A DNA stretch of 63,424 nt from a virus (taxonomy: Duplodnaviria > Caudoviricetes), in IMG/VR virus record IMGVR_UViG_3300028025_001987, positions 1-63,424 of that record; one strand, 5' to 3'. How positions within the stretch are numbered: the stretch's first letter is position 1; the number at the start of each line of letters is the position of its first letter. A program made the position numbers and the translations under genes. The notes under the pieces were generated by a model. The model was not told the DNA's origin, did not search any database, and was given only the letters and a program-made list of their open reading frames with translations. This document shows positions 17,762 to 59,254 of the stretch, one piece after another.

Positions 17762-17988
17762 TGGACATTCGTAAAATATCAATAGGACCCGACTACAAAG
17801 GTGGTGCTATGCACTATATTGTAGGGCAGAAAATCCTTGGTGATACTAACGAAATTCATCTTATCAGGCTTAATCCTGAGAAAAAGTCTATCCAAATCTT
17901 TATTATAAATGAGAAGGCGGAGGTAGTGCTTTGGAAAGAGTTTACCTCCACCATTCCTATATCTATTGAATATAACATCAATATCTAA
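17761..17988 (+). CDS. conserved phage hypothetical protein
   Basis: IRKISIGPDYK..AMHY.VGQ, coupled start/stop. Confidence 0.65.
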   Translation: MDIRKISIGPDYKGGAMHYIVGQKILGDTNEIHLIRLNPEKKSIQIFIINEKAEVVLWKEFTSTIPISIEYNINI

Positions 17989-18551
17989 TGCAGTCTCCAT
18001 TCTATTTCATAGCCAAGCCGGTTAATGGAAGAAGATACGACAATACAAAAGAGATAGGAGGTATTGACTTTATTGTCAGCACTTCCGAGGAGGACCATAA
18101 GTTTTCCAACCGATTTGCAGAAGTCGTTGAACTTCCATTGGGTTACAACGGTCCTATCAGAGCAGGTGACACTTTACTTGTGCACCATAACGTATTCAAG
18201 TTTTATAACGATATGAAAGGTAGGCAGAAGAGTGGCAAGTCTTTTTTTAAAGACGACCTATTCTTTATTGAGACCGAGCAGTTCTATATGTATAAGCAAG
18301 ACTCCACGTGGAACGCTTACGATAGGTATTGCTTTATCAAACCCATTTCTGCTACAGAAAGCTATATCAAAAAACCATTTTCAGAGGAACCCCTTATGGG
18401 TATTATGAAGTACCCTAACGAGTACTTACTTGAGCGTGGTATCAAGGCAGGAGATATGGTATGTTTTAGCCCTGATAGTGAATACGAGTTTACGGTAGAT
18501 GATGAGAAATTATATAGGATGTATGACCACCAAATAACAATGAAATTATGA
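17988..18551 (+). CDS. GroES-like (tandem Cpn10-fold) protein
   Basis: Two repeats of the AEVV..P.......GD.(L/V).F/H...F pattern. Confidence 0.55.
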   Translation: MQSPFYFIAKPVNGRRYDNTKEIGGIDFIVSTSEEDHKFSNRFAEVVELPLGYNGPIRAGDTLLVHHNVFKFYNDMKGRQKSGKSFFKDDLFFIETEQFYMYKQDSTWNAYDRYCFIKPISATESYIKKPFSEEPLMGIMKYPNEYLLERGIKAGDMVCFSPDSEYEFTVDDEKLYRMYDHQITMKL

Positions 18552-29319: not shown

Positions 29320-32300
29320 ATGGCAAATTTTACAAGAAACTTTATAGCAGGTAGAATGAACAAGGTAGTAGACCAACGTTTACTTCCTGAGGGTGAGTAT
29401 GTTGATGCTATGAATATTAGAATGGGTTCAACCGAGAACGCTGAGATGGGAGTAGTAGAGAATACCAAAGGGAATCTTTCTCTTACCACATTAAAATATA
29501 ATGGGACATCTCTTAGTTCGTCAGCAAGATGTATTGGGGCGATTGAGGATAGTGCAAACGAAACCATTTATTGGTTTGTTCACGACTCAGCTTTCCCGGT
29601 AGGTGCTACGGGTAAACTTGATTTAATCTTGTCATTTAATGTTTTTACTAATATATTAACCTATCACGTAATAAGCATTAACAATGGCGGAAACGTTAAT
29701 ACTGTGTTAAACTTTAATCCAAGTTATTTGATTACGGGGATTAATGTACTAAACGATTTATTGTTTTTTACGGATGATTATAATCCACCTAGATTTATAA
29801 ATACCAATAGAAATTACGCTAATCCCGTATCTAATATAGACCAATTTACAGCAGAGTCTTTACTTGTTATTAAAAAACCACCGGTAGAATCCCCTGATGT
29901 AGAGCCTATTGTAACTAATGGACAAGAGAATTTTTTAACTACAAGATTCATTTGTTTTGCTTACAGATATAAATATATTGATGGCGAGTATAGTGCTACT
30001 TCTCAGTGGTCTCAACCTGCTTTTGTACCTAATCCTTTTAGTTTTAGTACTGAGAGTTTTTTAAACGAGGGGATGACCAACTTCTGTAACTCTGCACGAA
30101 TCACATACAACTCAGGAAGTTCTCTTGTAGTTGGTATTGATTTATTATTTAAAAGAGCAGATGGTACCGTAATAAAAGTTATCGAGAAACTTGACAAGAC
30201 TAATTTAGGTCTTTCAAATAATACAGAGTATCAATATACATTTACTAATAGCAAAATATTTACAATACTATCTGAGTCTGAATTATTGAGATTATACGAT
30301 AACGTACCTCGTTTTGCCAAGGCTCAGACTATTATGGGCAATAGATTAATGTACGGAAACTACATAGAGGGATACGATTTAGTAGACCAATATGGAGTTC
30401 CTGTTAAGTTTGAATATACTACCGACTTGGTTTCATTGCCTATTGGAAATTCTGATATTAACGATGCTACTTCAGCAGGAAATTATAATATTAATGGAAG
30501 CGTAAGTGTTCCAAGTTCAATAGTTTCATTTGACTTAACAGGTAAAAATTTAGTTGCAGGTTCTGCAGTTAGTTTGGCTGTAACAATTGAGCACGCTCAG
30601 TTTTCAGGTCAAACACCTTTTCCTACAGAAGAAACGGCTGATGTAAATTTAAACTTTTCATTTTTCTTAACTAAAACTTATACATCTGTATATCAATTAG
30701 CAACAAGTGTAGAGTTTCAAACTGCAGTAGGTACATCTGCTAATATCCAATCATTTGCGAATGCGTGTGTTGGTACAACATTTACTGACTCAGTTAACTG
30801 CTTATTACCAAATACTTTAGATGCTTATACAGCTACAGGTAGTGGTATAAGTGCATTAGCACAACCGGTTGGTATTGTAACAAGTCCAATTAGCAATTGG
30901 ATTGGATTCCAATTCATTGCACAAAAATTTGTAAACAACGTATCAACTCCTACTCAAACTTTTTATGAGTACTATCAAGTTGCTTTAGCTGAGGCAACTT
31001 TTCAAGAAGTTGCTAACCCTCAAAGTTTACATAGTAATCGTGACTATGAGATTGGTATTGTTTATATGGATGAATTTAATAGAGCATCTACTGCTCTTGT
31101 AAGTCCTAACAATACAGAGCACGTTCCTTGTGGATTATCGTCATATAAAAATTCAATTAAAGTAACGATACCTGCTACTCAAAAACCTCCGGGATGGGCT
31201 ACTAGGTATAAGTTTGTAATAAAGCCTGACCAAGAGAATTATGAGACAATTTATTGTAGCATATTCTTCCAAGACCCTATAACAAATAATGCATTCTTTT
31301 TATTAGAAGGAGAGAATGCAAAAAAAATAGAGGCGGGAGATAGGTTAATTGTAAAGGCTGATTCAAGTGGAGTAACATCATCTTGCGTATATGCAACTGT
31401 TCTTGAGAAATCTTCTCAAGCATCAAACTTTATTGAAATACCAACAGAAGAAGACCCCGAAGTATTTTTACCAATTCCTGCAGGCGTTTATATGAAAATA
31501 AACCCAAATAGTTTTAGTACAGTTACAGATGAGTATGCTATTATTGCTCCGGGTAAAATAACAGAAAGGGCACCAAGTCCGGGCATATTTGGTTCCGGAA
31601 CTTACCCTATTTTATATTACCCAATGAACACTGCTCAAACAGTAGGATTTGACCCTGCTCATCCAACTTGGGAATTTTCTGATTACACTGTACCTGCAGG
31701 AAGCAGAATTGTATTAGACATAAAACAATTTAGAGGTGGCAAAGGTTGTCAATGCGAAGAAAGAACAAATACTTTAGAGAAAACACTTGTCTCGTCAAAG
31801 ACGTATGACAATATGTATGATTGGTTTGTTGGAGATAACATAGAGCAATTTTTAAATGATGGAGTTAGATATGCTTCTTGTGGAGCCGATGTCCCTGAAA
31901 ATGAATTTGTTCCGGGTACAGGAAGTTCTACATTGATACCTAATAGTGGAATCAATTACTATCAATTTTATAGGAATCCAACAACCAATGAATTATATTT
32001 AATGGTTTCAGGTACTAAAAGCTGTCCGGGAATTGATTATCCAAATTCACGTGCTTCTAATGTTGAGGTAAATATTACAGTATTCCGTTCTGATAAAACA
32101 ATAATATTTGAAACAGAACCAACTGACGCTCTTCCTGACGTATTCTTTGAAAACGAAATGTCTTTTGCTATTACGGGTGGTAACCATATGGGTAACATCC
32201 AAAACCAAAATATAGGAGCAGGTACATCTGCTATAATTGACACTAAGTTTTTTAACTGCTTTGCATTTGGAAACGGAGCGGAGAGTTATAAGATTCGTGA

Positions 32301-34212
32301 TTCAATTATTGGGGGTTCATTTAACTTTGGAAATAGAGTGACAAGCGTTTCTGCTCAAGACTATAAAGCGGCAGATAGATTTGCTGACATCACATATAGT
32401 GGCGTGTATAGTGCTGAGTCAAACGTAAATAAGTTAAATGAATTTAATTTGGGCTTGCTTAACTATAAAGTTTGTGAGCCATCATTTGGAGAGATATTTA
32501 TATTAGACGGAAGGCAAACAGATGTACTTGTATTACAAGAAGATAAGATTTCATACGTATTAGCTGATAAAAATTTATTATCAGATTCTACAGGTGGTGG
32601 GGTTGTGGCTTCAGTCCCTGAAGTGTTAGGCACACAGATTGCCCGTAGCGAAAAGTATGGCATTAGCTTTAATCCTGAGAGTTATATACAATGGGGTTAC
32701 GATAGATATTTTACTGACGTAAAACGTGGTGCTGTTATTCAACTACGTGGAACTTCATATTCTAGTGAGGAACTCAAAGTTGTTTCTGAAATGAATATGA
32801 GAACTTGGTTTAGAGATACATTCAATGAATCTTTTAATACTCAAAAACTTGGTGGATTTGACCCTTATATGAATGAGTATGTCTTAACAAGTAATACTAT
32901 TGCTATACCATCAAATCCTCAGTGTATAAATTGTGGTATTACTCAAACATTTACATTGTCATCTGCGACAAGTGCAACAACAACTTATTGTGTTGACTTA
33001 GGTCCAACGGTAGGACTAACGGATATAAACTATACTGTTTCTTCAATAAGTGCAGGAGGTAATTTCCAAATAGTAGCTACTTATAATGGCACACCATACA
33101 CTACAGGTATAGTTACAACAGGCGGAACGTTATCTTTTACTAAGAATAATGTATCAGTAGAGACTGTAACTCTTGTAATAACTTATATAGGGAATATTAC
33201 ATTAGGCGTTGAGGTAGAGTGTCCTCAGGCAGCATCCTTAAGTATTGTTCAAATAGTGCTTACAAATGATTATGACTCAGGTCAAACCACTAATGCTCAA
33301 TATAGATATGTAAATGGCTCTTATACATCGCCACTACAATCTACCTTGGTGACATTTGCTAGTGGAACAACAAACCCACTTGTGTCATTATATAACATAA
33401 CAACAAATTATGTTGGTACGGGTGGTTTCCCTCCTGCAGGAAGTACAATGAGTTTGATTTCAAATAAACTTGCTACTGACACCTTTATATTTAATCCTGC
33501 TACTGATAAGTTTAGATACCTTGCTAGCAATACTTTATATAATAATACTACAGCAAACATAAATTCATTGTTAGCGTTAACAACAGTTGCCACTCCTAAT
33601 CAGGGTAGTGGAGGTAATAATTATGCAAACTTTACGGTACCTGCTCTTCAAAATTATTTGTATTTAGTATGGGACTTTAGGTCTTCAGTTGCTGTAGAAT
33701 TATGTTATTCTAATTTAAATACAGAAGATGCTTGTTGTGGTTGTGAATTAGAGCCAATATCATATAATTGTATTGATGGTAACTGTGTAGACCCGGGCGA
33801 TGGAACAGGCACATATGCTAGTTTAGCTTCTTGTGAAGCAAATTGTGCTGCCCCTACAACGGTTAGATTAGATTGGAACGTTGGTCAGCAATCAGGAGGA
33901 GCATTAGTAATATTTAACAATGTTGGGTCTCAATTACTAAATGTAACATCTACAGCAGGAACTGCTCAAAGTGGAACAATATATCCTTTGATAAGTCAGT
34001 TACCTTATACCATCCGTGGTGAGTGGGTATCGGGTTCAGGAAATATTATACAATTTAATTTATGTAATATAATAGATGGCGGAACAATATTTACAAGCGG
34101 AGAAATTACTAGCGTAGAGGGTTATGAGGACTATTTAGTTACACCAACGCCTGTTCACGGATTAGTTAGTTTAACTGCACAGAATGTAACACCACCTACT
34201 TGTCCTGTATAA
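29320..34212 (+). CDS. tail nozzle / stabilisation protein (P22 gp10-like), N-terminal part
   Basis: F..GRMNK..D.RL.P.GEY.DA.N, LFFTDDYNPPR, GNRLMYGNY, YGIS.NPES, YFTD.KRG.V. Confidence 0.75.
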   Translation: MANFTRNFIAGRMNKVVDQRLLPEGEYVDAMNIRMGSTENAEMGVVENTKGNLSLTTLKYNGTSLSSSARCIGAIEDSANETIYWFVHDSAFPVGATGKLDLILSFNVFTNILTYHVISINNGGNVNTVLNFNPSYLITGINVLNDLLFFTDDYNPPRFINTNRNYANPVSNIDQFTAESLLVIKKPPVESPDVEPIVTNGQENFLTTRFICFAYRYKYIDGEYSATSQWSQPAFVPNPFSFSTESFLNEGMTNFCNSARITYNSGSSLVVGIDLLFKRADGTVIKVIEKLDKTNLGLSNNTEYQYTFTNSKIFTILSESELLRLYDNVPRFAKAQTIMGNRLMYGNYIEGYDLVDQYGVPVKFEYTTDLVSLPIGNSDINDATSAGNYNINGSVSVPSSIVSFDLTGKNLVAGSAVSLAVTIEHAQFSGQTPFPTEETADVNLNFSFFLTKTYTSVYQLATSVEFQTAVGTSANIQSFANACVGTTFTDSVNCLLPNTLDAYTATGSGISALAQPVGIVTSPISNWIGFQFIAQKFVNNVSTPTQTFYEYYQVALAEATFQEVANPQSLHSNRDYEIGIVYMDEFNRASTALVSPNNTEHVPCGLSSYKNSIKVTIPATQKPPGWATRYKFVIKPDQENYETIYCSIFFQDPITNNAFFLLEGENAKKIEAGDRLIVKADSSGVTSSCVYATVLEKSSQASNFIEIPTEEDPEVFLPIPAGVYMKINPNSFSTVTDEYAIIAPGKITERAPSPGIFGSGTYPILYYPMNTAQTVGFDPAHPTWEFSDYTVPAGSRIVLDIKQFRGGKGCQCEERTNTLEKTLVSSKTYDNMYDWFVGDNIEQFLNDGVRYASCGADVPENEFVPGTGSSTLIPNSGINYYQFYRNPTTNELYLMVSGTKSCPGIDYPNSRASNVEVNITVFRSDKTIIFETEPTDALPDVFFENEMSFAITGGNHMGNIQNQNIGAGTSAIIDTKFFNCFAFGNGAESYKIRDSIIGGSFNFGNRVTSVSAQDYKAADRFADITYSGVYSAESNVNKLNEFNLGLLNYKVCEPSFGEIFILDGRQTDVLVLQEDKISYVLADKNLLSDSTGGGVVASVPEVLGTQIARSEKYGISFNPESYIQWGYDRYFTDVKRGAVIQLRGTSYSSEELKVVSEMNMRTWFRDTFNESFNTQKLGGFDPYMNEYVLTSNTIAIPSNPQCINCGITQTFTLSSATSATTTYCVDLGPTVGLTDINYTVSSISAGGNFQIVATYNGTPYTTGIVTTGGTLSFTKNNVSVETVTLVITYIGNITLGVEVECPQAASLSIVQIVLTNDYDSGQTTNAQYRYVNGSYTSPLQSTLVTFASGTTNPLVSLYNITTNYVGTGGFPPAGSTMSLISNKLATDTFIFNPATDKFRYLASNTLYNNTTANINSLLALTTVATPNQGSGGNNYANFTVPALQNYLYLVWDFRSSVAVELCYSNLNTEDACCGCELEPISYNCIDGNCVDPGDGTGTYASLASCEANCAAPTTVRLDWNVGQQSGGALVIFNNVGSQLLNVTSTAGTAQSGTIYPLISQLPYTIRGEWVSGSGNIIQFNLCNIIDGGTIFTSGEITSVEGYEDYLVTPTPVHGLVSLTAQNVTPPTCPV

Positions 34213-34231
34213 TTAAAATAAAATATAAAAA

Positions 34232-34858
34232 ATGGCAACAAGTTCAACATACTATCTAAATGCACCATCACTTGGTTCGGCAACTGCCGTGTTTACAAAT
34301 AGCACACTAGCAACTTGTGCTCCTAATGGATTTTATTCAGACGGAGTAATTACAAGACAACAAGTGGGATGTGTTTTATTACCACAGCAAACTTGTCCTG
34401 CGTGTGATGGCGTTTCATATAACTGCGTTGAAGGAACTTGCACGGACCCGGGAGACGGAACAGGAACGTATGAGACATTGGCAGCTTGCCAAGCAGTATG
34501 TGGCTCAGGTGAGTCATACAATTGTATAGACGGAGTTTGTGTTGACCCCGGAGATGGTAGCGGAACATACGCAACATTAGGAGCGTGTGAGGGTGCTTGC
34601 AATCCTGAGGTATATACTATTGATTCATTTGCAACAGGCTCATCGGCTACTGCTTGCAGTACCGGAAGTCCATCGGTTACCGTTTATGCTTTACCCGGAT
34701 ATACGGTTCCAATTGTTACAATGATTTTTTATACCGATTTAGCTTTAACAACTCCTTACGTTGGCGGAGCGGGATGGCGTAAATTTACAAATGGGACTAC
34801 AAACTATGCAGGAGAAGTTGATGCTACAGGAGAACTTACAAATTATGTAACTTGCTAA
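34232..34858 (+). CDS. Cys-rich virion protein
   Basis: Two SYNC..G.C.DPGDG.GTY.TL.AC...C repeats. Confidence 0.65.
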   Translation: MATSSTYYLNAPSLGSATAVFTNSTLATCAPNGFYSDGVITRQQVGCVLLPQQTCPACDGVSYNCVEGTCTDPGDGTGTYETLAACQAVCGSGESYNCIDGVCVDPGDGSGTYATLGACEGACNPEVYTIDSFATGSSATACSTGSPSVTVYALPGYTVPIVTMIFYTDLALTTPYVGGAGWRKFTNGTTNYAGEVDATGELTNYVTC

Positions 34859-34867
34859 TAAATAAAT

Positions 34868-35641
34868 ATGCCAAATTATACATTATCATATAGCGATTTA
34901 GTAGGGGGATGGGTATCCTTCTACTCTTACAATCCTGATTTTATGATAGGGATGAACAACTACTTTTACACGTTTAAAGGAGGCAATCTTTACAGACATA
35001 ACGTAAATGCTAACAGGAACACATTCTACGGCACTTTTACGCCATCGTCTATACAAAGTGTGTTTAATACGGCACCTCTTGAAAACAAGCTATTTAAGAC
35101 CATTAACATACAAGGTGATGCTGCTTGGGCTGCAACATTAGAAACGGACTTACAGTACTCAGGATTTATACAAGTAGATTGGTTTTCTAAGAAAGAGGCT
35201 GCTTACTTTGCCTTTATAAGAAATAACTCAGTTGGCGAACTTGCACTTAGAAGTGTTAATGGTATCGGCAAAAGCTACCAAGTGACGGGGTCAGGAGCGG
35301 CTGTGATAGTTAAATTTGCTGTAGAAATAGGAAGCATTATTAGTATTGGGGATTATTTGTACTATTCGGTATCTCCTTATGTGACTCCAATACTTGCAGG
35401 TAAAGTGACAGCTATTACTATTAACCCTTTAAGTTCGGTTAATCAACTTACAATAGATACTACAATCTCAGGAACAACACCTATACCAATACAAGATGCG
35501 TTTTTCTTGTACATCAAAAACTCAGTAGCTGAGTCTCACGGGGTGTTAGGACATTATTGTACATTTACACTATCAAACACTTCTACAAGTAAAGTTGAAT
35601 TGTTTGCAGTGCAGTCAGATGTTATGAAAAGTTTTCCTTAA
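34868..35641 (+). CDS. tail nozzle / stabilisation protein, C-terminal part
   Basis: TLSYS....GWVSFYSY.P...N..P...K.FKT....ELFAV.S. Confidence 0.6.
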   Translation: MPNYTLSYSDLVGGWVSFYSYNPDFMIGMNNYFYTFKGGNLYRHNVNANRNTFYGTFTPSSIQSVFNTAPLENKLFKTINIQGDAAWAATLETDLQYSGFIQVDWFSKKEAAYFAFIRNNSVGELALRSVNGIGKSYQVTGSGAAVIVKFAVEIGSIISIGDYLYYSVSPYVTPILAGKVTAITINPLSSVNQLTIDTTISGTTPIPIQDAFFLYIKNSVAESHGVLGHYCTFTLSNTSTSKVELFAVQSDVMKSFP

Positions 35642-38503: not shown

Positions 38504-41500
38504 ATGCCGGATTTAAAACAAGCGTTAAAAGATTTTGTAGCTACTTCTAATAGTGGTGTATATAAAGACGAGACCACTTTATTGTCTAAGTTCCCTGAGT
38601 TAAAGAGTTATGATATTAATGCATTAAAAGATTTTGTAGCTACCTCTAATAGCGGTGTATATACAAGTGAAGATGAGTTATTTTCTAAATTCCCTGAATT
38701 TGGAATTTCAAAAGAAGCCGAAGCATTAAAAAAAAAAGAGTCAATTACTACGGTATCACCTTTGGAAGATACTTTTTTGGCTTCGCAAAAACAACTTCCT
38801 AGCTTTGAGGTTAGTCCATTAAGAGCAGAGGCTCCTGTTAAAAAAGAAAAATTACTTAAAAATTTAGAAGCATTTGAACAGGCTACTGATAGAAATGCTT
38901 ATTTAGATAATATTGGTACAAGAGCATTATCAGGTGTTACTTCTTTCGATAAAATGGTTGCATCTATTCCTGAATCAATTATTAACGTAGCATCATTGCC
39001 TCAAAATGCATTAGCTTGGGCTACGGGTTGGGATATTGCGGCTAATGCTGACACATTTAAGAAAACATTAGGTATAAGCAATCCTATCTTAGATAAATTA
39101 AACGAAGAAGAAAAAAGACTTAGTGCTAAAACTGAAAAGTTTAATCAAGAAAGATATGAGAGTACAGGTATTGTAGATAATATACAAAAAGGAAATTATC
39201 AAGATGCATTTGAATTATTAGGAAGTAATATTATAGAATCTGCTCCTGTAAGTATAGCAATGATGGTTGGAGGAGCAACACTTGCTCCTACCGAATTGGC
39301 AGCAATTAGTACTGCTGCTTTTCTTGAGCAGAATAGAGAGCAGCTAGGAGAAGAAAATCCTGATATGCCTGAAGTAGAAAAGACAGTAAAAGCATTGGGA
39401 ATGGCTGCTGCAGAAACGGTATTTAGTGCTATTGGCACAGGTACAATTGGTCAAGTATATAAGGATATTATAAAAAAAGAAGGCGTAGAAGTAGGAAAGA
39501 ATATATTTAGAGATGGTTTAGTTGCTACATACAAAAGTGCATTAACTAAGTATGGTGTCCCAATAGGTCTTTTAGGAGAAGGTATAGAGGAAGCAGCTAC
39601 CCAAATTACTCAGAATGTACTTAGTGATAAATCCGCATTCCAAGGTGTTGCGGATGCATTTGTAACCGGAGCCGGAAGTGGCGTTGTATTTACTGCACCA
39701 ATTAGTGCAATAAAAGCTAGAGATAAAATAAAAGATTTTGTAGAAACTTCTCAATCTAAAAATGCAATAAAAACTGTATTAAAAGATAATGAGTTAACTC
39801 AAATTTATAATGTTCCTAAAGATAGCCCTATTACTTCTGAGCAAATAGAGATTGCTAATACCAATAAATCAAGAAATATATTGGTAAAAAATTTAGATAA
39901 AAAGGTAAAAAATGGCGAAATATCAGAAGATGACGCTAAACAATCAATATATGTATTTGATAAAATTCAACAAGTTTCAAATTCAGTAAAAGATTTAAAC
40001 GTAACTAATTCTGAAAAGGCAGAGATTGCTACTTTATTAAGCAAAAGAAATCAATTAACTACTGACATACAAAATAAAGACGATGTATTAGTAGTTAAAG
40101 AAAAACAAGAAATAGCAGATATTAATAAAAAAATTCAGGATATTATATTGGTTTCAAAACCACAACAAGTGGAAGAGGTTGCTGCTGAAACAAATTTAGG
40201 TCTTGAAAAAGAATTAAGAGAGGAATTTAATTATGATTATTATGAAGAAAACCTTAATAGCGAATTTGAGTGGCAAAGAGATTTTGCAAAAGAATTTTTA
40301 AATGACCCTAAAGCCGCTTTTGAAAAGAGTATTAAACTTTTTAAAGATGCACTACAACGAGAACCAAATAACCAATCTTACAAGGACTCATTAGATTATA
40401 ATGAAGAACGATTAAATAAGTGGAACGAAATAAATAATAAATATAAAACCGAACAAGATGCCATTCAAAAACAAATCACAGATGAAGGCTTGCTACGCAG
40501 CCAAGGACCCCAATTGGGATTGCAAAAAATGGGCGAAGGAAACCAAGGACTTGAAGTCGCTGCCACAGGGACCCAAGAAGTCGCTCCTACGCAACCGCAA
40601 CAAGAAATAGTAAAAGCAAAATTTGAAGGACCAATAACTCAAGAGTCATTAGAAACAATCCCTGAAAAAGATATTTCAGATGTGACTGAACAAATAAATA
40701 ATGGTCAAGCAAAATTAAATATAGACGCATTCCCTGCTACAGAATTAGGTACAGATAATAAAATCACAAATAACCAAAATGTATATTTATTACATTCGCA
40801 AGGTAAAGAGATTGGGATTTTAACTGTTAACAATGAAAAACTTGGTAACAGAGATGAAAGTTCAATAGCAGGTGTTGTTTTGCATCCTGACGTACAAGGA
40901 AAAGGAATCGGTAAAGAAATGTACCGATATGTAAATAATGATTTAATTGAAAATGGGAAACAGCCATTAAAATCAGATTACGATATAACTCCTGATGCAA
41001 TTAATGTATGGAAGAGTTTGGTTAAATCAGGAGAAGCAACTCAAATTGGAGTCTCTGAAAAAAATAATGTTCCTTTATTTCAAATGAACAAACCTTCTGT
41101 TGAGTTGGTGTCTTTAAAGACACAAGCACCTAAGTTTGTTAGAGACATCTCTGCTCTTATCACTCCGGCTACAGTGCGTGGATTCAGTCCACTTACTGAA
41201 AGGATTAAGAAGTTGTCGTTGAACTATGACAAACTTGTTAAGCAATACGCTAAAAAGAAAGACCCTAAAGTTCTTGCTAAAATAAAAACTGCGGAGGCTC
41301 AAATATTAAATGATGCCAAGCAGGAGATTATTGATGCAGTAGCAAATATTGATGGTGTATCTGTTCAGTTTAAAGATACCAAGCGTGGCTTATGGGATAA
41401 GAAATTTGAACCATCGTTCAATATGACCTTGTCAGTTAGTCCACAGGCGGATACTAAAAAGGTAAGCGACTTACTATTTGACTTTGCAGAGAAGTATTCT

Positions 41501-44500
41501 CAAGACGCATTTATATTAGAAACTAATTCTGACCTTGAAGATGATGTTATAAATAAGGGCAGAGAAATGCCTCTTACAGAATTTGATGAAAATAATTTAA
41601 TGAATTATCCGCAAATTATTTATACATTTGCTGAACCAATAACTGACGAGCAAGTAGCAGACCTATCTGTAGCGTTAGAAAGTGAAGGTATTGATGCATT
41701 TAATATCAATAATAATGAACTTCAGGTATCAGTAATTAAATTTCTTTCACAAGACGAACAAAACAATTTAACCAATGATGAACAATATCAAGAACGCACA
41801 AGAGACTTCGACTCAAAAACAATCGCAATCGCAAAAGCCACGTCTGACGTACTCGGAAGCGATGGCAAGGGTGCAAGCAGCATTCGCATCAAAAAATCTT
41901 CTTACCAAGGAGCAACCAATGAAGGAAGTGCAGACCAAACAAGACAATTCAATAGGAGTGACGTTTTTAAAGCGTTCAAAGAGTCAACCACAAAAGTAGA
42001 AACACTTGCAGTTGAACTTGCTGACTTACGCCAAAAAGAAATAGACCTACAAAAAGAAGGAAAAAAATTATCTACTGAAGACCAAACTCGATTTAACGAG
42101 TTAGTTAAAAAAGTACAGCCTGTAGTACAGCGTACATTTGAAGCAAATAAAAAACTTTATGAAGATGCTAAGACTGAGGTAGAAGGTATCGCACAAGATG
42201 CCATCTCTCAAGTTGACGCATCCATATCTCCATTCCCAATTAAACGTGCCGAGCGTGCATCTGTTAAAGCTATCAGATGGTATAATGCATTCACCGAAAA
42301 ACTTGGTGATGGTTCACGTGTAAATATCGTAGTAGATACTGACGCTAATGCTGATAAAGTATTTAAAATTATTGACGAGAAGTATCCGGGGGATACAGAA
42401 GTAAGAAGAATCACGGAGACTACAGAATTGGGTTACCCAAAAAGACTTATTGAAATTCGTACATCTAATGGTACGCTTGCAGAAATTCAAGTGATTACCA
42501 ATGAAGCCTATTTGGCTAAGGATGGCATCAAAGGATTTACCGGAGATGAAAAGCAAAAAGCTACAGCTAAACAAAAGTTAGATGAAGTACGTGCTCGTCT
42601 TGGATGGAATATACCTGATGGACTTGGTCATTATTTCTACGAGATTCAAAGAGATACCAATGTAGATGATACTTTAAGAGATGAGGCTGCAAGATTAAGC
42701 GACCTATATTATGATGCATTTACTAATCCAAAGTCTACACTTACTGAGTCTTTTATGAATGATGTAAATACATTTAAAAATAATGTAGATGCTGCTGATA
42801 AATCACAATGGGATGTAGGAAACAATGGTAAGGCTCCACAATCTTTAATAGATTATAAACCTGTTCAGGCTGAAGCTGCACTTATGATAGAAGAAGAGCA
42901 GTTTATTCCTATGAAAGCATCTGAGGTTAAGAATGATGCGTTTACCAAAGACAATGCAATAGACTATATTGAAGATGAAAAAGATACTGATAGCGGAAGA
43001 ACTGTAACATATATCTCATCACTTACCGTTGAAGCACGTAATATAGATGGTGAACCTATTGGAACAATAACAAAACTTACCGATGAAGATAAAATATTCT
43101 CATTTACTGCAACAGATATTGATGGTAATGAGATTAATTTTGATGGATTTGAGACATTAGGAGAAGTAAAACAAGCACTTGCTGACAAGAACAATAAGAT
43201 TCAGAAGAAAGAATTTGATAAAGAGCAAAAGAAAAGGGCTAAAGAAAAAGCTAAAGTTGAGGCTAAAAAAGCTAAAGCTAAAGCAAAAGCTAAGCCTACA
43301 GTAGAAGAGCAAGTAACGGGTGCATTAGATGACTTACTTGCATTAGACCCTAACGATAAGACTACATTAAAGAAAATCTCAAATAGCCTTGACCAAGTGA
43401 TTAAGGATATTGATAAGTTTGAGAAAGAAAATCTTGGTGTAAATATAGCATTGCCTGTAATGAAGACCATCCTTAAAGCAATCAAGGCATTGGTTGACGC
43501 AGGTGTTGTATTACAAGATGCAATTAAAAGAGTTGCTAAAGACAACAATGTAAATAGCCGTGATGTAATTGATGGTATCAATGCTATTAGTCAAATTGCT
43601 CCTATTCAATCGCAGTATGATGCATTAATGGCAAAGGCTGATGATTTAATTGCACGTCAAAAATTAAGAAATATAGCTGATGCTAAAATAGTATCTAACT
43701 TAGATACGTTTATTAGAAATTCAGATATTTACAAAGAGAGTAATGATGCACAGAAGAAAATAATGGAGCGTGAGGCTAGACTTAAAATGGGAGTTGGTGC
43801 TAAGCGTGCGGTGTCAATTGGACGTGTGCTTGGTGCATTAAAAGATATTACCAATATATCGAGAGAAGAAAAGATGCTTGTCATCAAGCAAATTAGAGAC
43901 TTATCAAGAGATGCAGCTAAGGAATTGGCTAAGGATATTAGAGAGATGGCATCAAAAGGAAAGATTACATCAATCCAAGCAGCTAATATTGTATCAAGAT
44001 TTGGCAAGGTAAATATGCTTAATGAGATTTCAGTGTCAAACTTTGTTGACTATATGGCTAAGGTATTTGCAAACGCAGAGTATGCTGATAAGATTGATGT
44101 GGCTAAGAGTAAGTTGAAGATGGCTAAGAAAAACATTGTTACCAAGATTGGTATTGCTGATGGGTTGGTTGGAAAATTAAATCAATTATTTTCTATGAAT
44201 CCAACACTTATACCTAATGAATATCTTGGTCGTTACTTAGAATTAGTTGATATGTTTGGTGCAAGACAAGCAGTGCTTACACTTGACGAGAAGTCTGCAG
44301 TGACTAAAGATGTTCAAGCAATTCTTGATGAGATTGACAACGAGCAGTCAAAAGCTGACGAGTTAGCTGATAGATTTAATGCTTCTGAGAATAAAGTATT
44401 TAAAGATGACGAATTAGATTACGCAGCATCAATTAAAAAAATGCTTGACGGGAAAGAGATTGACGAGAAGGAAGCAGAGACTATGCGTAAATATAAAGAG

Positions 44501-47413
44501 GACATTGCTCCTCAAGTTGAAGAGACTGAACTTACTGAAGATGAATTAGCGGCAGAAAGAAAAGAATTAACAGATGCAGTAAAAAAATCGACCATTGATG
44601 GCTCCGGTCTTTCTACTAAATATGAAAGAGATACGGTTAAAGAATTAACTAGACTTATTAGAACTGACGCAGTAGATAGTTTAACTAATACTGAATTAAA
44701 AAATTTACTTAAAGTTATTGACAACATTAACAACAACTACTTACCTCACTACGGAGAGATAATGCTAGAGAAGTTAGATGGACTTAATACTGACAAGGTT
44801 TTAACTAAAGCTGTTGAGCAGAGCAAGATGTATAAGTTCTCTGAATTATATTCAAAAGCAAAAGCTGCTGTTGCGATGCAAGGAAGAACAGGTGTTTTAG
44901 AAATGGTTAGAAGAAACCCTTTATTTTATATTGACCAATTATTTGGGAATTTTAAAACAAAAGAAATATTTAATTCGTTATTTAATGAACCTGCAAAAGC
45001 CGTTGCTGTATTTAAAACTCAATTAAATAGAGTTCAAAACATTTTAGAAAAGGCTGAAGAAAAGGTGGCTAAGTCATTTGGACTTGAACCTAATGCAGTA
45101 ACTATGTCTAAATTTAAGATGATGACTTATATGGTTCAACTTGAATTTGAATCTAACAAAGGGAATAAAGAAGTTAATCCCGCATCTGATTATTTAAAAG
45201 CTACTATAAAGCATATTGATGCAGGAAAGTCTCGATTTGGAGAACGTGATGCTGATATGTTACAACAAATACTTAAAGATTTTGCTCCTGATGGCAACAT
45301 TGATAACGAAAAACTTTACAACTCATTTAATCAAGCTGAGAAAGATGCCATTAAAGACATTCGTGGTATAAACGAATCACTAAGAGAGAAGGCTGAATTT
45401 ACTGCAGCGATTATTCGTGGCGATAGGATTGACCCATTGAATAACTATGTGCACTTAAATGTATTACACGAGTATCAGCCAAACGATTTAACATCGGGCA
45501 GTGCGTTTGTAACTGAGTACAATAATGCAATGAGACCATCTACTAAAGCAAAGTCTTTGATAGCGAGAACAGGTAAGGTATCCCCATTAAACTTTGACAT
45601 ATTTGCAAGTGCTCAGCGTGGTGCCAAATTTGTCTTGATGGATTTCAACTTAACAAAACCAATACGTACATCTCGTAAAACAATCAGCGGCACTATTGCT
45701 AATTTAGAAAGTAAAGGAAGAATACCTAAAGAACAAAGACAAATAATAAATGCTATTAATGCTGCGTTTGAAGAGTCTATTGAAACGTTATTGACAAATA
45801 CATTCACTCAAGATTCAGCATTAGATATAGCTATTGATTACATAAGCAAACAAGGATACCGTGCAGTACTTGCGGGTACAAATAGGTTTACATCTGAGTT
45901 AACATCAAACATAGGATTTGCTGTAATTAGTGACCCTAAGGCTCTCATTACAGGTATAAAATACAGAGGTGTTATTATGTCTTCTGATGCTCCTATGATA
46001 ATGGAGAATTTAAAAAGCAAGCAAACTAATAGAGTTTTTCCTACAGATACATTATCAGGAAGATTAGTTGATACATCAATATTAAGTCAAGCAAGTGGTA
46101 TTAAAGGTGCTGTATCAAAAAATCCTGTTAAAAATAAAATTCAACAAATTTGGAACAGGTCAGGAAAAAAATATGTTAATGCAATTGAACTTCAAGCTGA
46201 TGCTTTGATTTCAACTCCTGATAAACTTACAATGAGACCTATGTGGTTTGGCTCCTTTGCAAATCAATTTGAAAATATCACAGGCAATGAAGTAGACTTT
46301 AAAAAAATTGCAGAGAATGATGAGACATATATGGAAGCCAATAAGGAGGCTCTTGATAAAGCTACTCAACTTGCAGACGAAAGGTCTGTAATGGTGGGAG
46401 CCACAGACAATCCATTTATGGGTATTTTAAAAGGAAACATAAAGCCTGACCAAAAACTTGCGTTAAGAGCATTTAATAACTTCAATAACTTTATGACAAA
46501 GTTCTTGATATTTGAATATGTTACAGCACGTACAGCTATTATGGCAGCTATTGGTAATGGGTCATTAACTAAAAAACAAGGAGGTGCAGTTCTTGGAGCA
46601 GTTGCTACACGTATGGTAGTATATGGATTAATTCTTCAAATGATGGGCACAGGTCTTATGGGATTATTCTTTGATGATGATGAGCCTGAAACAGAAAAGT
46701 CGTTTATGCAAAAACTTGGTCAAGCATTCGCTTCTGCATTTAGTTCGTTATTAATTGGAAGAGATTTTGGAAATGCTGTTAAGACTGTATTAAACTATGG
46801 TATAGAAGAAGCAAATGAAAAGTACCTTGACTTCTTAAGAGAGGGAGAATACGACCCGTATAAAGATGGCATTGCTTACACATTAATACCAAGAGATGAT
46901 AGTAAACAAACAGACTTAGGTAAGCTACTTATGAATATGGGAGGTGCTTATACACCTGCATTAAATACGGCTGCATTTATTGTTAAAAAGGCAACAGAAA
47001 AACCAAAAGTAAAAGAGGATGCTATTGCAAGAAGAGAGAAAGAGATTAAGATAAGGATTCCTCTTGAGGTATTGGGTAACGCAGGTCTTATTCCTTTATA
47101 CAAAGATATCCGTAAGGCTGTAATGAAAGATATGTATAAAGACCTTGAGAATGCTGATAAGACTAAGGGAGATAAAAAGAAAGCTGAGGCTGAAAAACTT
47201 CAAGGATTTAAGAACCAAGAAGATATGAAGCGTTACGATTACGAACTTTGGTATAGAACATTCGGACCTGACGCTGTTGACTTTGATGCAAAGCAAGCAG
47301 AAAAATTGATTAAGAAAACAAAGGATAGCTTGGAGAGAGCAATGAAAGATGATATGTACGACTACACTCCAAAACCTAAAAATAGTAAAGAAGGACTAGA
47401 GAAACTATATTAA
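38504..47413 (+). CDS. giant multidomain (polyvalent) ejection protein with GNAT and RelA/SpoT-like domains
   Basis: 2969 aa; EG.EEAATQ Gly/Ala segment; VLHPDVQGKGIG GNAT motif A; K..ER...K...D..R...GY...NG..AEIQ...H..YE..R nucleotidyltransferase pattern. Confidence 0.75.
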   Translation: MPDLKQALKDFVATSNSGVYKDETTLLSKFPELKSYDINALKDFVATSNSGVYTSEDELFSKFPEFGISKEAEALKKKESITTVSPLEDTFLASQKQLPSFEVSPLRAEAPVKKEKLLKNLEAFEQATDRNAYLDNIGTRALSGVTSFDKMVASIPESIINVASLPQNALAWATGWDIAANADTFKKTLGISNPILDKLNEEEKRLSAKTEKFNQERYESTGIVDNIQKGNYQDAFELLGSNIIESAPVSIAMMVGGATLAPTELAAISTAAFLEQNREQLGEENPDMPEVEKTVKALGMAAAETVFSAIGTGTIGQVYKDIIKKEGVEVGKNIFRDGLVATYKSALTKYGVPIGLLGEGIEEAATQITQNVLSDKSAFQGVADAFVTGAGSGVVFTAPISAIKARDKIKDFVETSQSKNAIKTVLKDNELTQIYNVPKDSPITSEQIEIANTNKSRNILVKNLDKKVKNGEISEDDAKQSIYVFDKIQQVSNSVKDLNVTNSEKAEIATLLSKRNQLTTDIQNKDDVLVVKEKQEIADINKKIQDIILVSKPQQVEEVAAETNLGLEKELREEFNYDYYEENLNSEFEWQRDFAKEFLNDPKAAFEKSIKLFKDALQREPNNQSYKDSLDYNEERLNKWNEINNKYKTEQDAIQKQITDEGLLRSQGPQLGLQKMGEGNQGLEVAATGTQEVAPTQPQQEIVKAKFEGPITQESLETIPEKDISDVTEQINNGQAKLNIDAFPATELGTDNKITNNQNVYLLHSQGKEIGILTVNNEKLGNRDESSIAGVVLHPDVQGKGIGKEMYRYVNNDLIENGKQPLKSDYDITPDAINVWKSLVKSGEATQIGVSEKNNVPLFQMNKPSVELVSLKTQAPKFVRDISALITPATVRGFSPLTERIKKLSLNYDKLVKQYAKKKDPKVLAKIKTAEAQILNDAKQEIIDAVANIDGVSVQFKDTKRGLWDKKFEPSFNMTLSVSPQADTKKVSDLLFDFAEKYSQDAFILETNSDLEDDVINKGREMPLTEFDENNLMNYPQIIYTFAEPITDEQVADLSVALESEGIDAFNINNNELQVSVIKFLSQDEQNNLTNDEQYQERTRDFDSKTIAIAKATSDVLGSDGKGASSIRIKKSSYQGATNEGSADQTRQFNRSDVFKAFKESTTKVETLAVELADLRQKEIDLQKEGKKLSTEDQTRFNELVKKVQPVVQRTFEANKKLYEDAKTEVEGIAQDAISQVDASISPFPIKRAERASVKAIRWYNAFTEKLGDGSRVNIVVDTDANADKVFKIIDEKYPGDTEVRRITETTELGYPKRLIEIRTSNGTLAEIQVITNEAYLAKDGIKGFTGDEKQKATAKQKLDEVRARLGWNIPDGLGHYFYEIQRDTNVDDTLRDEAARLSDLYYDAFTNPKSTLTESFMNDVNTFKNNVDAADKSQWDVGNNGKAPQSLIDYKPVQAEAALMIEEEQFIPMKASEVKNDAFTKDNAIDYIEDEKDTDSGRTVTYISSLTVEARNIDGEPIGTITKLTDEDKIFSFTATDIDGNEINFDGFETLGEVKQALADKNNKIQKKEFDKEQKKRAKEKAKVEAKKAKAKAKAKPTVEEQVTGALDDLLALDPNDKTTLKKISNSLDQVIKDIDKFEKENLGVNIALPVMKTILKAIKALVDAGVVLQDAIKRVAKDNNVNSRDVIDGINAISQIAPIQSQYDALMAKADDLIARQKLRNIADAKIVSNLDTFIRNSDIYKESNDAQKKIMEREARLKMGVGAKRAVSIGRVLGALKDITNISREEKMLVIKQIRDLSRDAAKELAKDIREMASKGKITSIQAANIVSRFGKVNMLNEISVSNFVDYMAKVFANAEYADKIDVAKSKLKMAKKNIVTKIGIADGLVGKLNQLFSMNPTLIPNEYLGRYLELVDMFGARQAVLTLDEKSAVTKDVQAILDEIDNEQSKADELADRFNASENKVFKDDELDYAASIKKMLDGKEIDEKEAETMRKYKEDIAPQVEETELTEDELAAERKELTDAVKKSTIDGSGLSTKYERDTVKELTRLIRTDAVDSLTNTELKNLLKVIDNINNNYLPHYGEIMLEKLDGLNTDKVLTKAVEQSKMYKFSELYSKAKAAVAMQGRTGVLEMVRRNPLFYIDQLFGNFKTKEIFNSLFNEPAKAVAVFKTQLNRVQNILEKAEEKVAKSFGLEPNAVTMSKFKMMTYMVQLEFESNKGNKEVNPASDYLKATIKHIDAGKSRFGERDADMLQQILKDFAPDGNIDNEKLYNSFNQAEKDAIKDIRGINESLREKAEFTAAIIRGDRIDPLNNYVHLNVLHEYQPNDLTSGSAFVTEYNNAMRPSTKAKSLIARTGKVSPLNFDIFASAQRGAKFVLMDFNLTKPIRTSRKTISGTIANLESKGRIPKEQRQIINAINAAFEESIETLLTNTFTQDSALDIAIDYISKQGYRAVLAGTNRFTSELTSNIGFAVISDPKALITGIKYRGVIMSSDAPMIMENLKSKQTNRVFPTDTLSGRLVDTSILSQASGIKGAVSKNPVKNKIQQIWNRSGKKYVNAIELQADALISTPDKLTMRPMWFGSFANQFENITGNEVDFKKIAENDETYMEANKEALDKATQLADERSVMVGATDNPFMGILKGNIKPDQKLALRAFNNFNNFMTKFLIFEYVTARTAIMAAIGNGSLTKKQGGAVLGAVATRMVVYGLILQMMGTGLMGLFFDDDEPETEKSFMQKLGQAFASAFSSLLIGRDFGNAVKTVLNYGIEEANEKYLDFLREGEYDPYKDGIAYTLIPRDDSKQTDLGKLLMNMGGAYTPALNTAAFIVKKATEKPKVKEDAIARREKEIKIRIPLEVLGNAGLIPLYKDIRKAVMKDMYKDLENADKTKGDKKKAEAEKLQGFKNQEDMKRYDYELWYRTFGPDAVDFDAKQAEKLIKKTKDSLERAMKDDMYDYTPKPKNSKEGLEKLY
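38521..38700 (+). repeat. tandem N-terminal repeat in the giant protein
   Basis: ALKDFVATSNSGVY....L.SKFPE twice. Confidence 0.85.
40458..40610 (+). CDS. nested +1-frame small protein (MPFK..Q...W type)
   Basis: MPFKNKSQMKACYAAKDPNWDCKKWAKETKDLKSLPQGPKKSLLRNRNKK; A-rich leader; local GC rise. Confidence 0.55.
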   Translation: MPFKNKSQMKACYAAKDPNWDCKKWAKETKDLKSLPQGPKKSLLRNRNKK

Positions 47414-47424
47414 ATATAAAATGT

Positions 47425-47586
47425 ATGAAAGGAAGTTCAAAAATGATTAAGAGAGCCGATGGCTCTATATCAAAGCGGGGTCTTTGGGATAACATTCGTG
47501 CTAACGCAGGTAGTGGGAAGAAGCCTACTCCTGCAATGCTTAAGCAAGAAAGAATTATAAAAAAGAAGGACGCTAAACGTACCTAA
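47425..47586 (+). CDS. small basic protein (not in ORF track)
   Basis: MKGSSKMIKRADGS.SKRGLWDNIRANAGSGKKPT.AMLKQ, 53 aa. Confidence 0.6.
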   Translation: MKGSSKMIKRADGSISKRGLWDNIRANAGSGKKPTPAMLKQERIIKKKDAKRT

Positions 47587-58135: not shown

Positions 58136-59254
58136 CTAAGGTTGGAATCGTAATACCTCAGACTCAGTGAACCACTCATCGCAACCACTACAATGATAAT
58201 TTGCGAACGCATCGTGCTCTAAATCGTGAAAGCAATTCACACATATAGGTTTCTCATTCTCTATGTCGAACTCGCAATCGTCACACTCATCGTCCAATAT
58301 GTCTAACAAGCACACACTCTTCGGCTCATCGTAGCCCATCTGAGAAAATATGCTTTGATATTTTTTACTCTCCCTCTCATCCTCTTTCTCCCAAAAACTT
58401 AACGGCTTATAATTTTGCGTGTAAGTTTTGTGATGCTCTTTTCCGTCTGCTGTCTCACGAATGTTGAAGTATATCCAACACTTAAGCACTCCGTTCTTAG
58501 TAGTCACATCAACTTGCTTCCTGCGATACCAATCAGGATGACCCTCCAATCTATCTAACTGAGCCAACACACCTGAACTGACTTTGAATATGTCCACCTC
58601 CACGTGATGACCTTGTCCACTCTTCTCAATCAAGTAAGGTAGTCCACTGATGATAAGCGGATACTTGCTCTTCGTGTTCCCTTTGGATACAAATTTTGAA
58701 GCACTGAGGTAGTGATGGTAATTGTTGTACCCCTTCTTTAACGTGCCGTAGACAGCAATTAAATTGTCCTCAAGGACGTTGTCCTTGCTGTACCAAACGC
58801 CATCCCTCTGACTCCACAACTCTTTGTTGTAGATTTGGTATGTCCTGCTGTGCGTGTTAACCGATACAAACCTGCACTCATACTGCTCCAACTCCTTCTT
58901 CCACTTGTGGCGTGGTATCTCACCCAAGTTCTCTGCTAATACTTTTGAGTCACTCTTCTTGACATTGCCAAGTGCTCTGATAGTTCCGTTCATCATAAGC
59001 CACTCTTGTTTGTTGCTCCCGCATCTGAATGGATGCGTGTTGTCTTTGTTGATAGCACCAATCGTGGCGTATCTAAAGTGAGCAATGAATGGTCTCGCTG
59101 TGTCGAGTATCTTATACTCTGCTGATTTGTGATACGTTACCTCGAACGTATCCAACCATACAACTCCCAATCCGTGGGGATTAATTCGTGCTGAGGTCTT
59201 TGCAACCTCCTGAGGGACTTTCTTCCCTTTCTGCTTGATAATGATTACACACAT
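58136..59254 (-). CDS. class II glutamine amidotransferase fused to gamma-glutamylcyclotransferase and a Zn ribbon
   Basis: N-terminal Cys (MCVII), NPHGLG, HFRYAT.G....NTHPF, MNG; AVYGTLKKG...LDRLEGHP.WYRR; CVNC/CSGC. Confidence 0.9.
   Translation of the reverse strand: MCVIIIKQKGKKVPQEVAKTSARINPHGLGVVWLDTFEVTYHKSAEYKILDTARPFIAHFRYATIGAINKDNTHPFRCGSNKQEWLMMNGTIRALGNVKKSDSKVLAENLGEIPRHKWKKELEQYECRFVSVNTHSRTYQIYNKELWSQRDGVWYSKDNVLEDNLIAVYGTLKKGYNNYHHYLSASKFVSKGNTKSKYPLIISGLPYLIEKSGQGHHVEVDIFKVSSGVLAQLDRLEGHPDWYRRKQVDVTTKNGVLKCWIYFNIRETADGKEHHKTYTQNYKPLSFWEKEDERESKKYQSIFSQMGYDEPKSVCLLDILDDECDDCEFDIENEKPICVNCFHDLEHDAFANYHCSGCDEWFTESEVLRFQP

Follow-up and report, generated by a model that had tools for sequence, protein, structure and literature searches.

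RelA/SpoT homologue (RSH) synthetases have been described in several delivery settings, and these are the frame for the locus analyzed here, an RSH domain at residues ~1216-1407 of a 2,969-residue protein encoded by an uncultured phage. The window, by which we mean the whole stretch of DNA that was analyzed, is the entire virus record IMGVR_UViG_3300028025_001987 (63,424 bases), rated complete by CheckV. Among the described systems, Tas1 (Apk1), a type VI effector of P. aeruginosa (PDB 6OX6), carries the domain C-terminally behind PAAR, and its gene lies next to the immunity gene tis1. The enzyme turns ATP into pApp, ppApp and pppApp and drains the target cell of ATP and ADP (PMC10083569). The tested PAAR- and MuF-fused enzymes produce (p)ppApp (PMC10083569; PMC12226406); within the Apk1/Tas1 homologues, (p)ppGpp is the sole product of VpEAS and AaEAS, and SaEAS forms the two kinds (PMC12691689). 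The MuF-fused Apk2 of prophages is toxic in E. coli and is followed by a binder-type and often by a hydrolase-type immunity gene (PMC10083569; PMC12226406). Its role in infection is stated as unknown in PMC10083569, where co-injection is given as one possibility. Iyer, Burroughs, Anand, de Souza and Aravind (2017), in the sections of PMC5512222 drawn on here, place RelA/SpoT domains exclusively among polyvalent proteins of the phage type, for which injection together with the DNA was proposed, and an alarmone-like shut-down was proposed for the RelA/SpoT domains themselves. This bears out the statement of an earlier note on this DNA that such domains occur in phage polyvalent proteins. Finally, the genes after the muzzle gene of PhicrAss001 encode cargo proteins, three of them of 154-277 kDa, which were found in virions by mass spectrometry and were proposed to unfold partly during extrusion (PMC10172136).

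The present locus shares features with each of these systems and differs from each. Unlike in Tas1, the domain is internal (1216-1407 of 2,969 residues); it belongs to a separate clade, the positions of Tas1 N370 and K353 are unmatched, and no immunity gene was found in the record and stored loci searched below. As in Apk2 of temperate phages (Bacteroides caccae, Streptococcus pneumoniae, Mannheimia haemolytica), a Tas1-like domain of a phage is joined to a protein from inside the particle, a location that the gene order suggests for the giant protein. Apk2, however, has ~500 aa (amino acids) with a C-terminal toxin, and its gene precedes immunity genes of the IapK/Tis1-like and often also of the Aph1 kind, whereas the giant protein has no MuF domain in a Pfam scan, no such immunity genes were found in these searches, and the 38 open reading frames (ORFs) scanned in the phage gave no sign of lysogeny genes. 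With the polyvalent proteins of PMC5512222 it has in common a giant multi-domain architecture with shuffled enzyme modules, and Kinase-PolyVal, ART-PolyVal and LPD23 occur in its relatives. The polyvalent RelA/SpoT domains described in that paper come from prophages of Spirochaetes and epsilon-Proteobacteria and from MuF fusions, whereas the giant clade resides in podophages related to those of Flavobacteriia, and no self-processing metallopeptidase was detected by Pfam in the window's protein. The likeness to cargo and ejection proteins (PhicrAss001 gp45-gp50; T7, P22) lies in the gene position downstream of a muzzle-type gene, the very large size and the one hydrophobic segment; the crAss001 giants are related to RNA polymerase, whereas the window's giant carries effector-type enzymes.

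Fold and motifs of the RSH domain

The earlier note had placed a RelA/SpoT-like domain at 42150..42720. This was confirmed: the four peptides it quoted lie in one frame of one ORF (38504-47413), at residues 1245-1383, corresponding to 42236-42652. The first frame of the interval 42150-42720 is not the coding frame. The domain and its motifs are as follows.

42149..42724, + strand: Tas1/Apk-like RSH synthetase domain, residues ~1216-1407 of the giant ORF, defined by homology
42236..42268, + strand: PIKRAERASVK, motif K1247..R1251..K1255, the basic motif that binds the ATP phosphates
42299..42331, + strand: KLGDGSRVNIV, motif D1269..R1272, invariant in alignment A1 (74 sequences); R1272 aligns to Tas1 R330
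42428..42493, + strand: LGYPKRLIEIRTSNGTLAEIQV, G1310-Y1311 followed by E1327-x-Q1329, with G110, E127 and Q129 invariant in A1; E1327 and Q1329 align to Tas1 E382 and Q384
42626..42652, + strand: GHYFYEIQR, motif G1375-H1376..Y1379-E1380..R1383, kept in at least 92% of giant and distant rows

The similarity of this region to RSH synthetases is far beyond chance. A phmmer search of all PDB sequences returned a single match, the Tas1 toxin domain (6ox6_A), with an E-value of 9.1e-6 over 188 residues (query 19-206, chain 256-433). When 1.84 billion representatives were searched exhaustively with HMMER, 182 matches had E<=1e-3 and 45 of these E<=1e-30. Alignment A1, consisting of the window's domain and 73 whole short homologues, matched Tas1 at 2.8e-97 when used as a profile and B. 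subtilis YwaC weakly (0.11), with the motifs in register; its invariant columns are D1269, R1272, G1310, E1327 and Q1329. There was no direct PHROG assignment of the domain. The structure prediction proposed by the earlier note recovered the RSH synthetase fold, with helices on either side of a central antiparallel sheet, and it superposes on RSH synthetase domains of solved structure: AlphaFold2 run on A1 gave a mean predicted local distance difference test score of 94.9 and a predicted template modelling (TM) score of 0.89. In a Foldseek comparison of this model with the PDB, Tas1 came first (E 1.7e-9, TM 0.74 on the target), all listed rows were RSH enzymes and 46 matches had E<=1e-3. The best matches in a library of viral models were proteins of uncultured phages labelled Tas1, RelA/SpoT, DdrB-like and ART-PolyVal-like. 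We therefore assign residues ~1216-1407 with high confidence to the Tas1/Apk-type RSH synthetases.

The motif order read from the sequence beforehand (K..R..K, D..R, GY, E.Q, H..YE) held up as well, since it falls on invariant or nearly invariant columns across 145 giant and 90 distant rows and the same motifs align in Tas1 and YwaC. The family columns concerned are K1247, K1255, D1269, R1272, G1310, Y1311, E1327, Q1329, H1376, Y1379 and E1380. Conservation was complete in the 145 giant rows for K1247, K1255, D1269, R1272, G1323, E1327 and Q1329, and for K1247 and K1255 also in the 90 distant rows; the remaining motif residues were kept in at least 89% of the giant rows. Five ATP-site residues of Apk1/Tas1 are named in PMC12691689, R330, K353, N370, E382 and Q384. 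In the pairwise phmmer alignment three of them are matched, R330 by R1272, E382 by E1327 and Q384 by Q1329. The numbering used here takes the chain index to be shifted by 21 from the published Tas1 positions, a shift that is deduced and fits all five residue identities.

Selection and phylogenetic position

Selection was estimated by comparing the window with 11 related viral contigs of 81-93% protein identity, using the 63 of 66 pairs that had a synonymous divergence (dS) above 0.05. The median pairwise ratio of nonsynonymous to synonymous divergence (dN/dS) in the RSH domain was 0.088 (maximum 0.14), the lowest of the four segments considered, with medians of 0.31 in the upstream domain, 0.15 in the linker and 0.18 in the tail. 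The RSH domain is under strong purifying selection. Judged by its conserved residues, it is probably enzymatically active.

A homologue search seeded on the RSH domain yielded 129 giant relatives of 1,632-5,196 aa and 48-100% identity. Its position in the giants is internal: of 144, one has the domain ending within 30 aa of its C-terminus, as against 76 of 96 shorter homologues. The shorter homologues of up to 1,300 aa (88 of the 96, P0158-P0253) included proteins with domains of toxin delivery, namely Phage_Mu_F in three, RHS in three, PAAR in two and PT-VENN, DUF4123 and WXG100 in one each, the last below the cut-off.

The phylogeny was built from 133 domain segments and 197 columns (all representatives with at least 150 aligned residues, shorter fragments being left out) by a short IQ-TREE search with midpoint rooting only. 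Here the window, 37 giants and seven short fragments form one clade with a support of 99 in the Shimodaira-Hasegawa-like approximate likelihood ratio test (SH-aLRT). The stem of this clade measures 1.09 substitutions per site. Its nearest neighbor is a MuF-fused protein of 560 aa, P0161 (SH-aLRT 94), and three other long proteins are placed outside it, among toxin-like sequences. After the GY motif the giant clade reads GYPKRL, where the toxin-like consensus is GYSG. The lists of Apk1 homologues in the supplement of PMC12691689 were built from bacterial UniProt entries and hold no virus, Caudovir or polyvalent entries, so that they neither include nor exclude the giant clade.

The carrier protein and its genome

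The source phage is of marine type, a podophage akin to phages of Flavobacteriia. Its virion genes form a block on the + strand in the order large terminase (19283), portal (21529), capsid-type proteins, a 1,630-aa protein, a 257-aa protein, four smaller ORFs and the giant ORF, which is the final gene of the block; the genes beyond switch to the opposite strand. The parts of the giant protein and the genes before it are listed here.

38504..47413, + strand: giant ORF, the 2,969-aa carrier protein (ORF list and translation)
29320..35641, + strand: muzzle-like tail genes upstream of the giant ORF, at 29320-34212 and 34868-35641 (PHROG and Pfam)
40772..40960, + strand: GNAT acetyltransferase-like stretch, residues 757-819, borderline (Pfam, ESM Atlas)
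41141..41983, + strand: alpha/beta domain, conserved, residues 880-1160, adjoining the RSH domain on its upstream side
41981..43699, + strand: cassette that holds the RSH domain, residues 1160-1732 (BLASTP against the giant of locus L012)
44834..47188, + strand: C-terminal scaffold, residues 2111-2895 (phrog_32588, E 7e-67)
46580..46672, + strand: the sole strongly hydrophobic segment, residues 2693-2723 (Kyte-Doolittle, 19-residue window, score >=1.6)

Of the two muzzle-like genes, the first (29320-34212, 1,630 aa) matches phrog_14478, 'virion structural protein', with an E-value of 3e-218, and the second (34868-35641, 257 aa) matches Pfam crAss_MUZ_C at 61 bits and also crAss_MUZ. By terminase and muzzle-like protein, the closest named phages are a spring-water podophage, with 78% terminase identity, the Flavobacterium phages of Elemovirus and phages of Cellulophaga, Tenacibaculum and Maribacter, with 87 such records in all. 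A megablast search with the giant gene found no match in 50,697 phage records, from which records of the same or very near genomes may have been left out. Giants in syntenic position occur in Elemovirus (3,667 aa), in phi38:1 (gp101, 1,691 aa) and in the spring-water phage, two of the three records being labelled 'structural protein'. For phi38:1 gp101 this GenBank label rests on similarity to a gene of another phage, and no mention of gp101 as a virion protein was found in the literature searched. The C-terminal scaffold matches the Elemovirus giant labelled 'structural protein' with 21% identity over ~715 aa (E 3e-12). The 3,667-aa giant of elemoA (L015, MT497077.1, 2-11005) carries a DUF3293 domain at 1296-1365 (E 1e-12), and just upstream of it has a short stretch in common with window residues 639-732.

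The giant protein behaves as a phage-type polyvalent protein. We conclude this from its very large size, its several unrelated effector modules (the RSH domain, the borderline GNAT and a further conserved globular domain), the shuffling of these modules and the PolyVal and LPD domains of its relatives. A Pfam scan of 12 giant relatives found Kinase-PolyVal in one, LPD23 in two (one of them also with ART-PolyVal), DUF7178 in three and nothing in six; the same scan of the window's own protein showed none of these four. Of 142 giants compared by BLAST with the window's protein, ~8% share its N-terminal 650 residues, 70-100% share residues 870-1450 and ~37% share the C-terminal 1,000 residues, and the start of the block 870-1451 in the relatives varied from subject residue 1 to 1936. 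Residues 880-1160 were covered by a high-scoring segment pair (HSP) in 100 of the 142, mostly continuous with the RSH domain. The RSH domain itself is one swappable, cassette-like module: in the 2,860-aa giant of L012 (L012:6335-14914), which is without it, HSPs cover window residues 845-1159 (66% identity) and 1733-1864, and 56 residues (subject 1513-1568) stand where the window's protein has the 573 with the RSH domain.

The GNAT-like stretch scored 20.7 bits with Acetyltransf_1, which equals the cut-off of 20.7, and 24.8 bits with Acetyltransf_7, below the cut-off of 27; in the ESM Atlas, the clusters closest to it are viral GNATs (score 0.93). In relative P0057 a Kinase-PolyVal domain (701-834) occupies about the same place, which suggests module replacement. 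For the upstream domain, an identification as S-AdoMet_lyase/DUF3293 was considered and stays an unconfirmed lead, as the ESM Atlas clusters scored 0.85-0.87, a recognition below the mark, and Foldseek gave nothing at E<=1e-3, with the phage S-adenosylmethionine lyase 6znb at rank 36 (E 0.12). The predicted complex of this domain with the RSH domain reached scores of 0.09 and 0.06, where the mark is 0.32, which is evidence neither way. The N-terminus of the giant protein contains two near-identical units of ~26 residues (ALKDFVATSNSGVY...SKFPE) at residues 7-32 and 40-65 (window 38522-38698).

A very basic ORF of 53 aa (47425-47586, + strand), the only downstream ORF on the + strand, directly follows the giant gene. 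It was found in five of 18 stored loci only (L001, L002, L003, L008 and L009; 87-90% over 39 residues) and was rejected as an immunity gene because it is missing from the RSH-bearing loci L004-L007, L010 and L011. Elsewhere in the window, a second giant ORF of 2,850 aa (8116-16668, + strand) has at its C-terminus a Peptidase_S74 domain, an intramolecular chaperone of the kind seen in tail fibres and spikes; its remaining sequence gave no family match. A GroEL-type chaperonin (Cpn60_TCP1, 205 bits; 871-2541, + strand) and a GroES-like co-chaperonin (phrog_13932; 17988-18551, + strand) are also encoded, and might have a role in folding the two giant proteins. On the other strand, a gamma-glutamyl cyclotransferase (GGACT) domain and a weak match to class-II glutamine amidotransferases occur together in a 372-aa protein (58136-59254, - strand).

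Proposed function and alternatives

An RSH domain in a cargo protein that works in the newly infected cell is, we infer, the best-supported reading of these data. More specifically, we propose, with a probability of roughly 0.55, that the domain is capable of catalysis as a nucleotide 3'-pyrophosphokinase, belongs to the Tas1/Apk branch of the RSH superfamily and forms a swappable module in a polyvalent cargo protein that is packaged, delivered and makes (p)ppApp-type alarmones at the onset of infection. Most likely, the giant protein is carried inside the particle and passes into the cell by extrusion, either before the DNA or along with it. Once refolded, the RSH domain would move pyrophosphate from host ATP to the 3'-OH of adenine and possibly guanine nucleotides, and the resulting (p)ppApp-type alarmones could lower ATP and ADP and thus damp host metabolism, transcription or ATP-dependent defences as infection begins. 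The proposal builds on the fold, the kinship to Tas1, the retained catalytic residues, the purifying selection, the presence and absence of the cassette, the polyvalent carrier and the position in the virion block; from these we infer activity, product, packaging, ejection and benefit to the phage. The interpretation of the earlier note, a RelA/SpoT-like domain delivered with the DNA inside an ejection protein, is thus supported in part: the RSH domain in a phage polyvalent-type protein stands by fold, motifs, carrier modules and virion-block position, and delivery keeps the status of a proposal.

Several observations weigh against this proposal. Pfam RelA_SpoT (PF04607), another check suggested beforehand, came out negative, with no match at E<=1 for the whole protein and none at E<=10 for the excised 240 residues. 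The miss is a limit of the model, and a match to it is not what defines the superfamily; among the 88 distant homologues scanned the model found the homologous stretch at E<=1e-3 in 13, and its gathering score (27 bits) was reached by two. A tblastn search of the RSH domain against the 50,697 phage records, with the same possible omission of near genomes, gave nothing at E<=1e-3, and the family hidden Markov model found no RSH domain in the syntenic giants of Elemovirus, phi38:1 and the spring-water phage (0 of 3 named or cultured relatives). In the active site, L1315 stands opposite Tas1 N370 and E1299 opposite K353, where a conserved R1301 follows two residues further on, so that two of the five ATP-site residues are unmatched in what is a pairwise alignment only. 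Tas1 homologues differ in product, and the product can therefore not be read from kinship; moreover, a wholesale depletion of ATP as by Tas1 would harm the phage too. No processing protease or metallopeptidase domain was detected in the giant protein by the Pfam scan. A six-frame search of the complete 63,424-b record gave nothing for the alarmone hydrolase HD_4 (PF13328), with control genomes positive in 10 of 14, and no consistently linked downstream ORF was found among the stored loci; the HD_4 search covers hydrolase-type immunity, without a model for Tis1/IapK. Tolerance of the enzyme by the producing cell, with no immunity gene found, is a difficulty for the proposal.

The alternatives differ from this proposal in product, in timing or in the domain having any activity at all. 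As for the product, (p)ppApp is favored because the kinship to Tas1 is much closer and the neighbor in the tree is MuF-fused, and (p)ppGpp or a mixed output is possible. That fold and delivery are as proposed and the product is (p)ppGpp only, mimicking the stringent response of the host, appears unlikely to us; it draws on the exclusive (p)ppGpp synthesis by VpEAS and AaEAS and the double output of SaEAS (PMC12691689), on the long stem of the giant clade with its own GYPKRL residues, and on the alarmone-like shut-down that Iyer et al. 2017 (PMC5512222) put forward. Toxins of the toxSAS type (FaRel, FaRel2, CapRel) are far more distant from the domain than Tas1, are small, come with an antitoxin gene or domain and serve host defence, not the phage; an RSH domain acting by modification of tRNA is very unlikely. 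A catalytically dead structural or spacer module, which the missing Pfam match and the two unmatched Tas1 positions would allow, is the least probable explanation, as all core catalytic columns are kept in 145 of 145 giant rows and the dN/dS of 0.088 is the lowest among the four segments.

An enzyme that is active but not injected, either acting late in the producing cell or belonging to an external or tail structural protein that meets nucleotides only at lysis, would fit the fact that no immunity gene was found in the searches above, which is easier to tolerate if activity is wanted late before lysis. It would also fit the role of the MuF-fused Apk2 in infection being stated as unknown in PMC10083569; and packaging of the giant is itself deduced from synteny and the annotation of relatives, a further point that counts against our proposal. 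The gene, however, ends the virion block after the tail and muzzle genes, the architecture resembles that of polyvalent proteins proposed to be injected (PMC5512222) and of the crAss001 virion cargo (PMC10172136), and a membrane step of ejection is consistent with the one hydrophobic segment, which lies in the conserved C-terminal part. We hold non-injection to be improbable to about the same degree as a (p)ppGpp-only product. A broader and doubtful reading, to which we give somewhat more room, sees in the giant RSH domains a separate, widespread lineage of Apk type (at least 129 giants from metagenomes), in which a toxin used between bacteria or by prophages has turned into an effector that initiates infection, injected without an immunity partner, with a clade-specific active site and harmless in the producer through the context of its 2,969-residue precursor. 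That context could consist in storage in an unfolded state or in the alpha/beta domain conserved upstream, which accompanies the RSH domain in 100 of 142 relatives, and GYPKRL, with L in place of Tas1 N370, might lead to a product or to kinetics by which host defences are disabled while the phage is not deprived of ATP.

In summary, RelA/SpoT domains in polyvalent proteins were published in 2017 and phage-borne Apk enzymes were characterized in 2023 and 2025, so that the present finding extends a published class and is not a new one. No description of the giant clade in virion-block proteins of Flavobacteriia-type podophages was found in the full-text searches on phage or virion ppApp and polyvalent RelA. 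The carriage and injection of phage (p)ppApp synthetases in aid of infection is an open question for Apk2 in PMC10083569, and the giant clade provides a second, independent setting for it, in lytic-type podophages akin to cultured Flavobacterium and Cellulophaga phages, with no immunity gene found in the loci searched, strong constraint on the domain and natural relatives without the cassette. If the domain is indeed active and injected, it would offer a divergent Apk enzyme for working out adenine versus guanine specificity, and nucleotide-alarmone synthesis would be a general tool of environmental phages for early host takeover.

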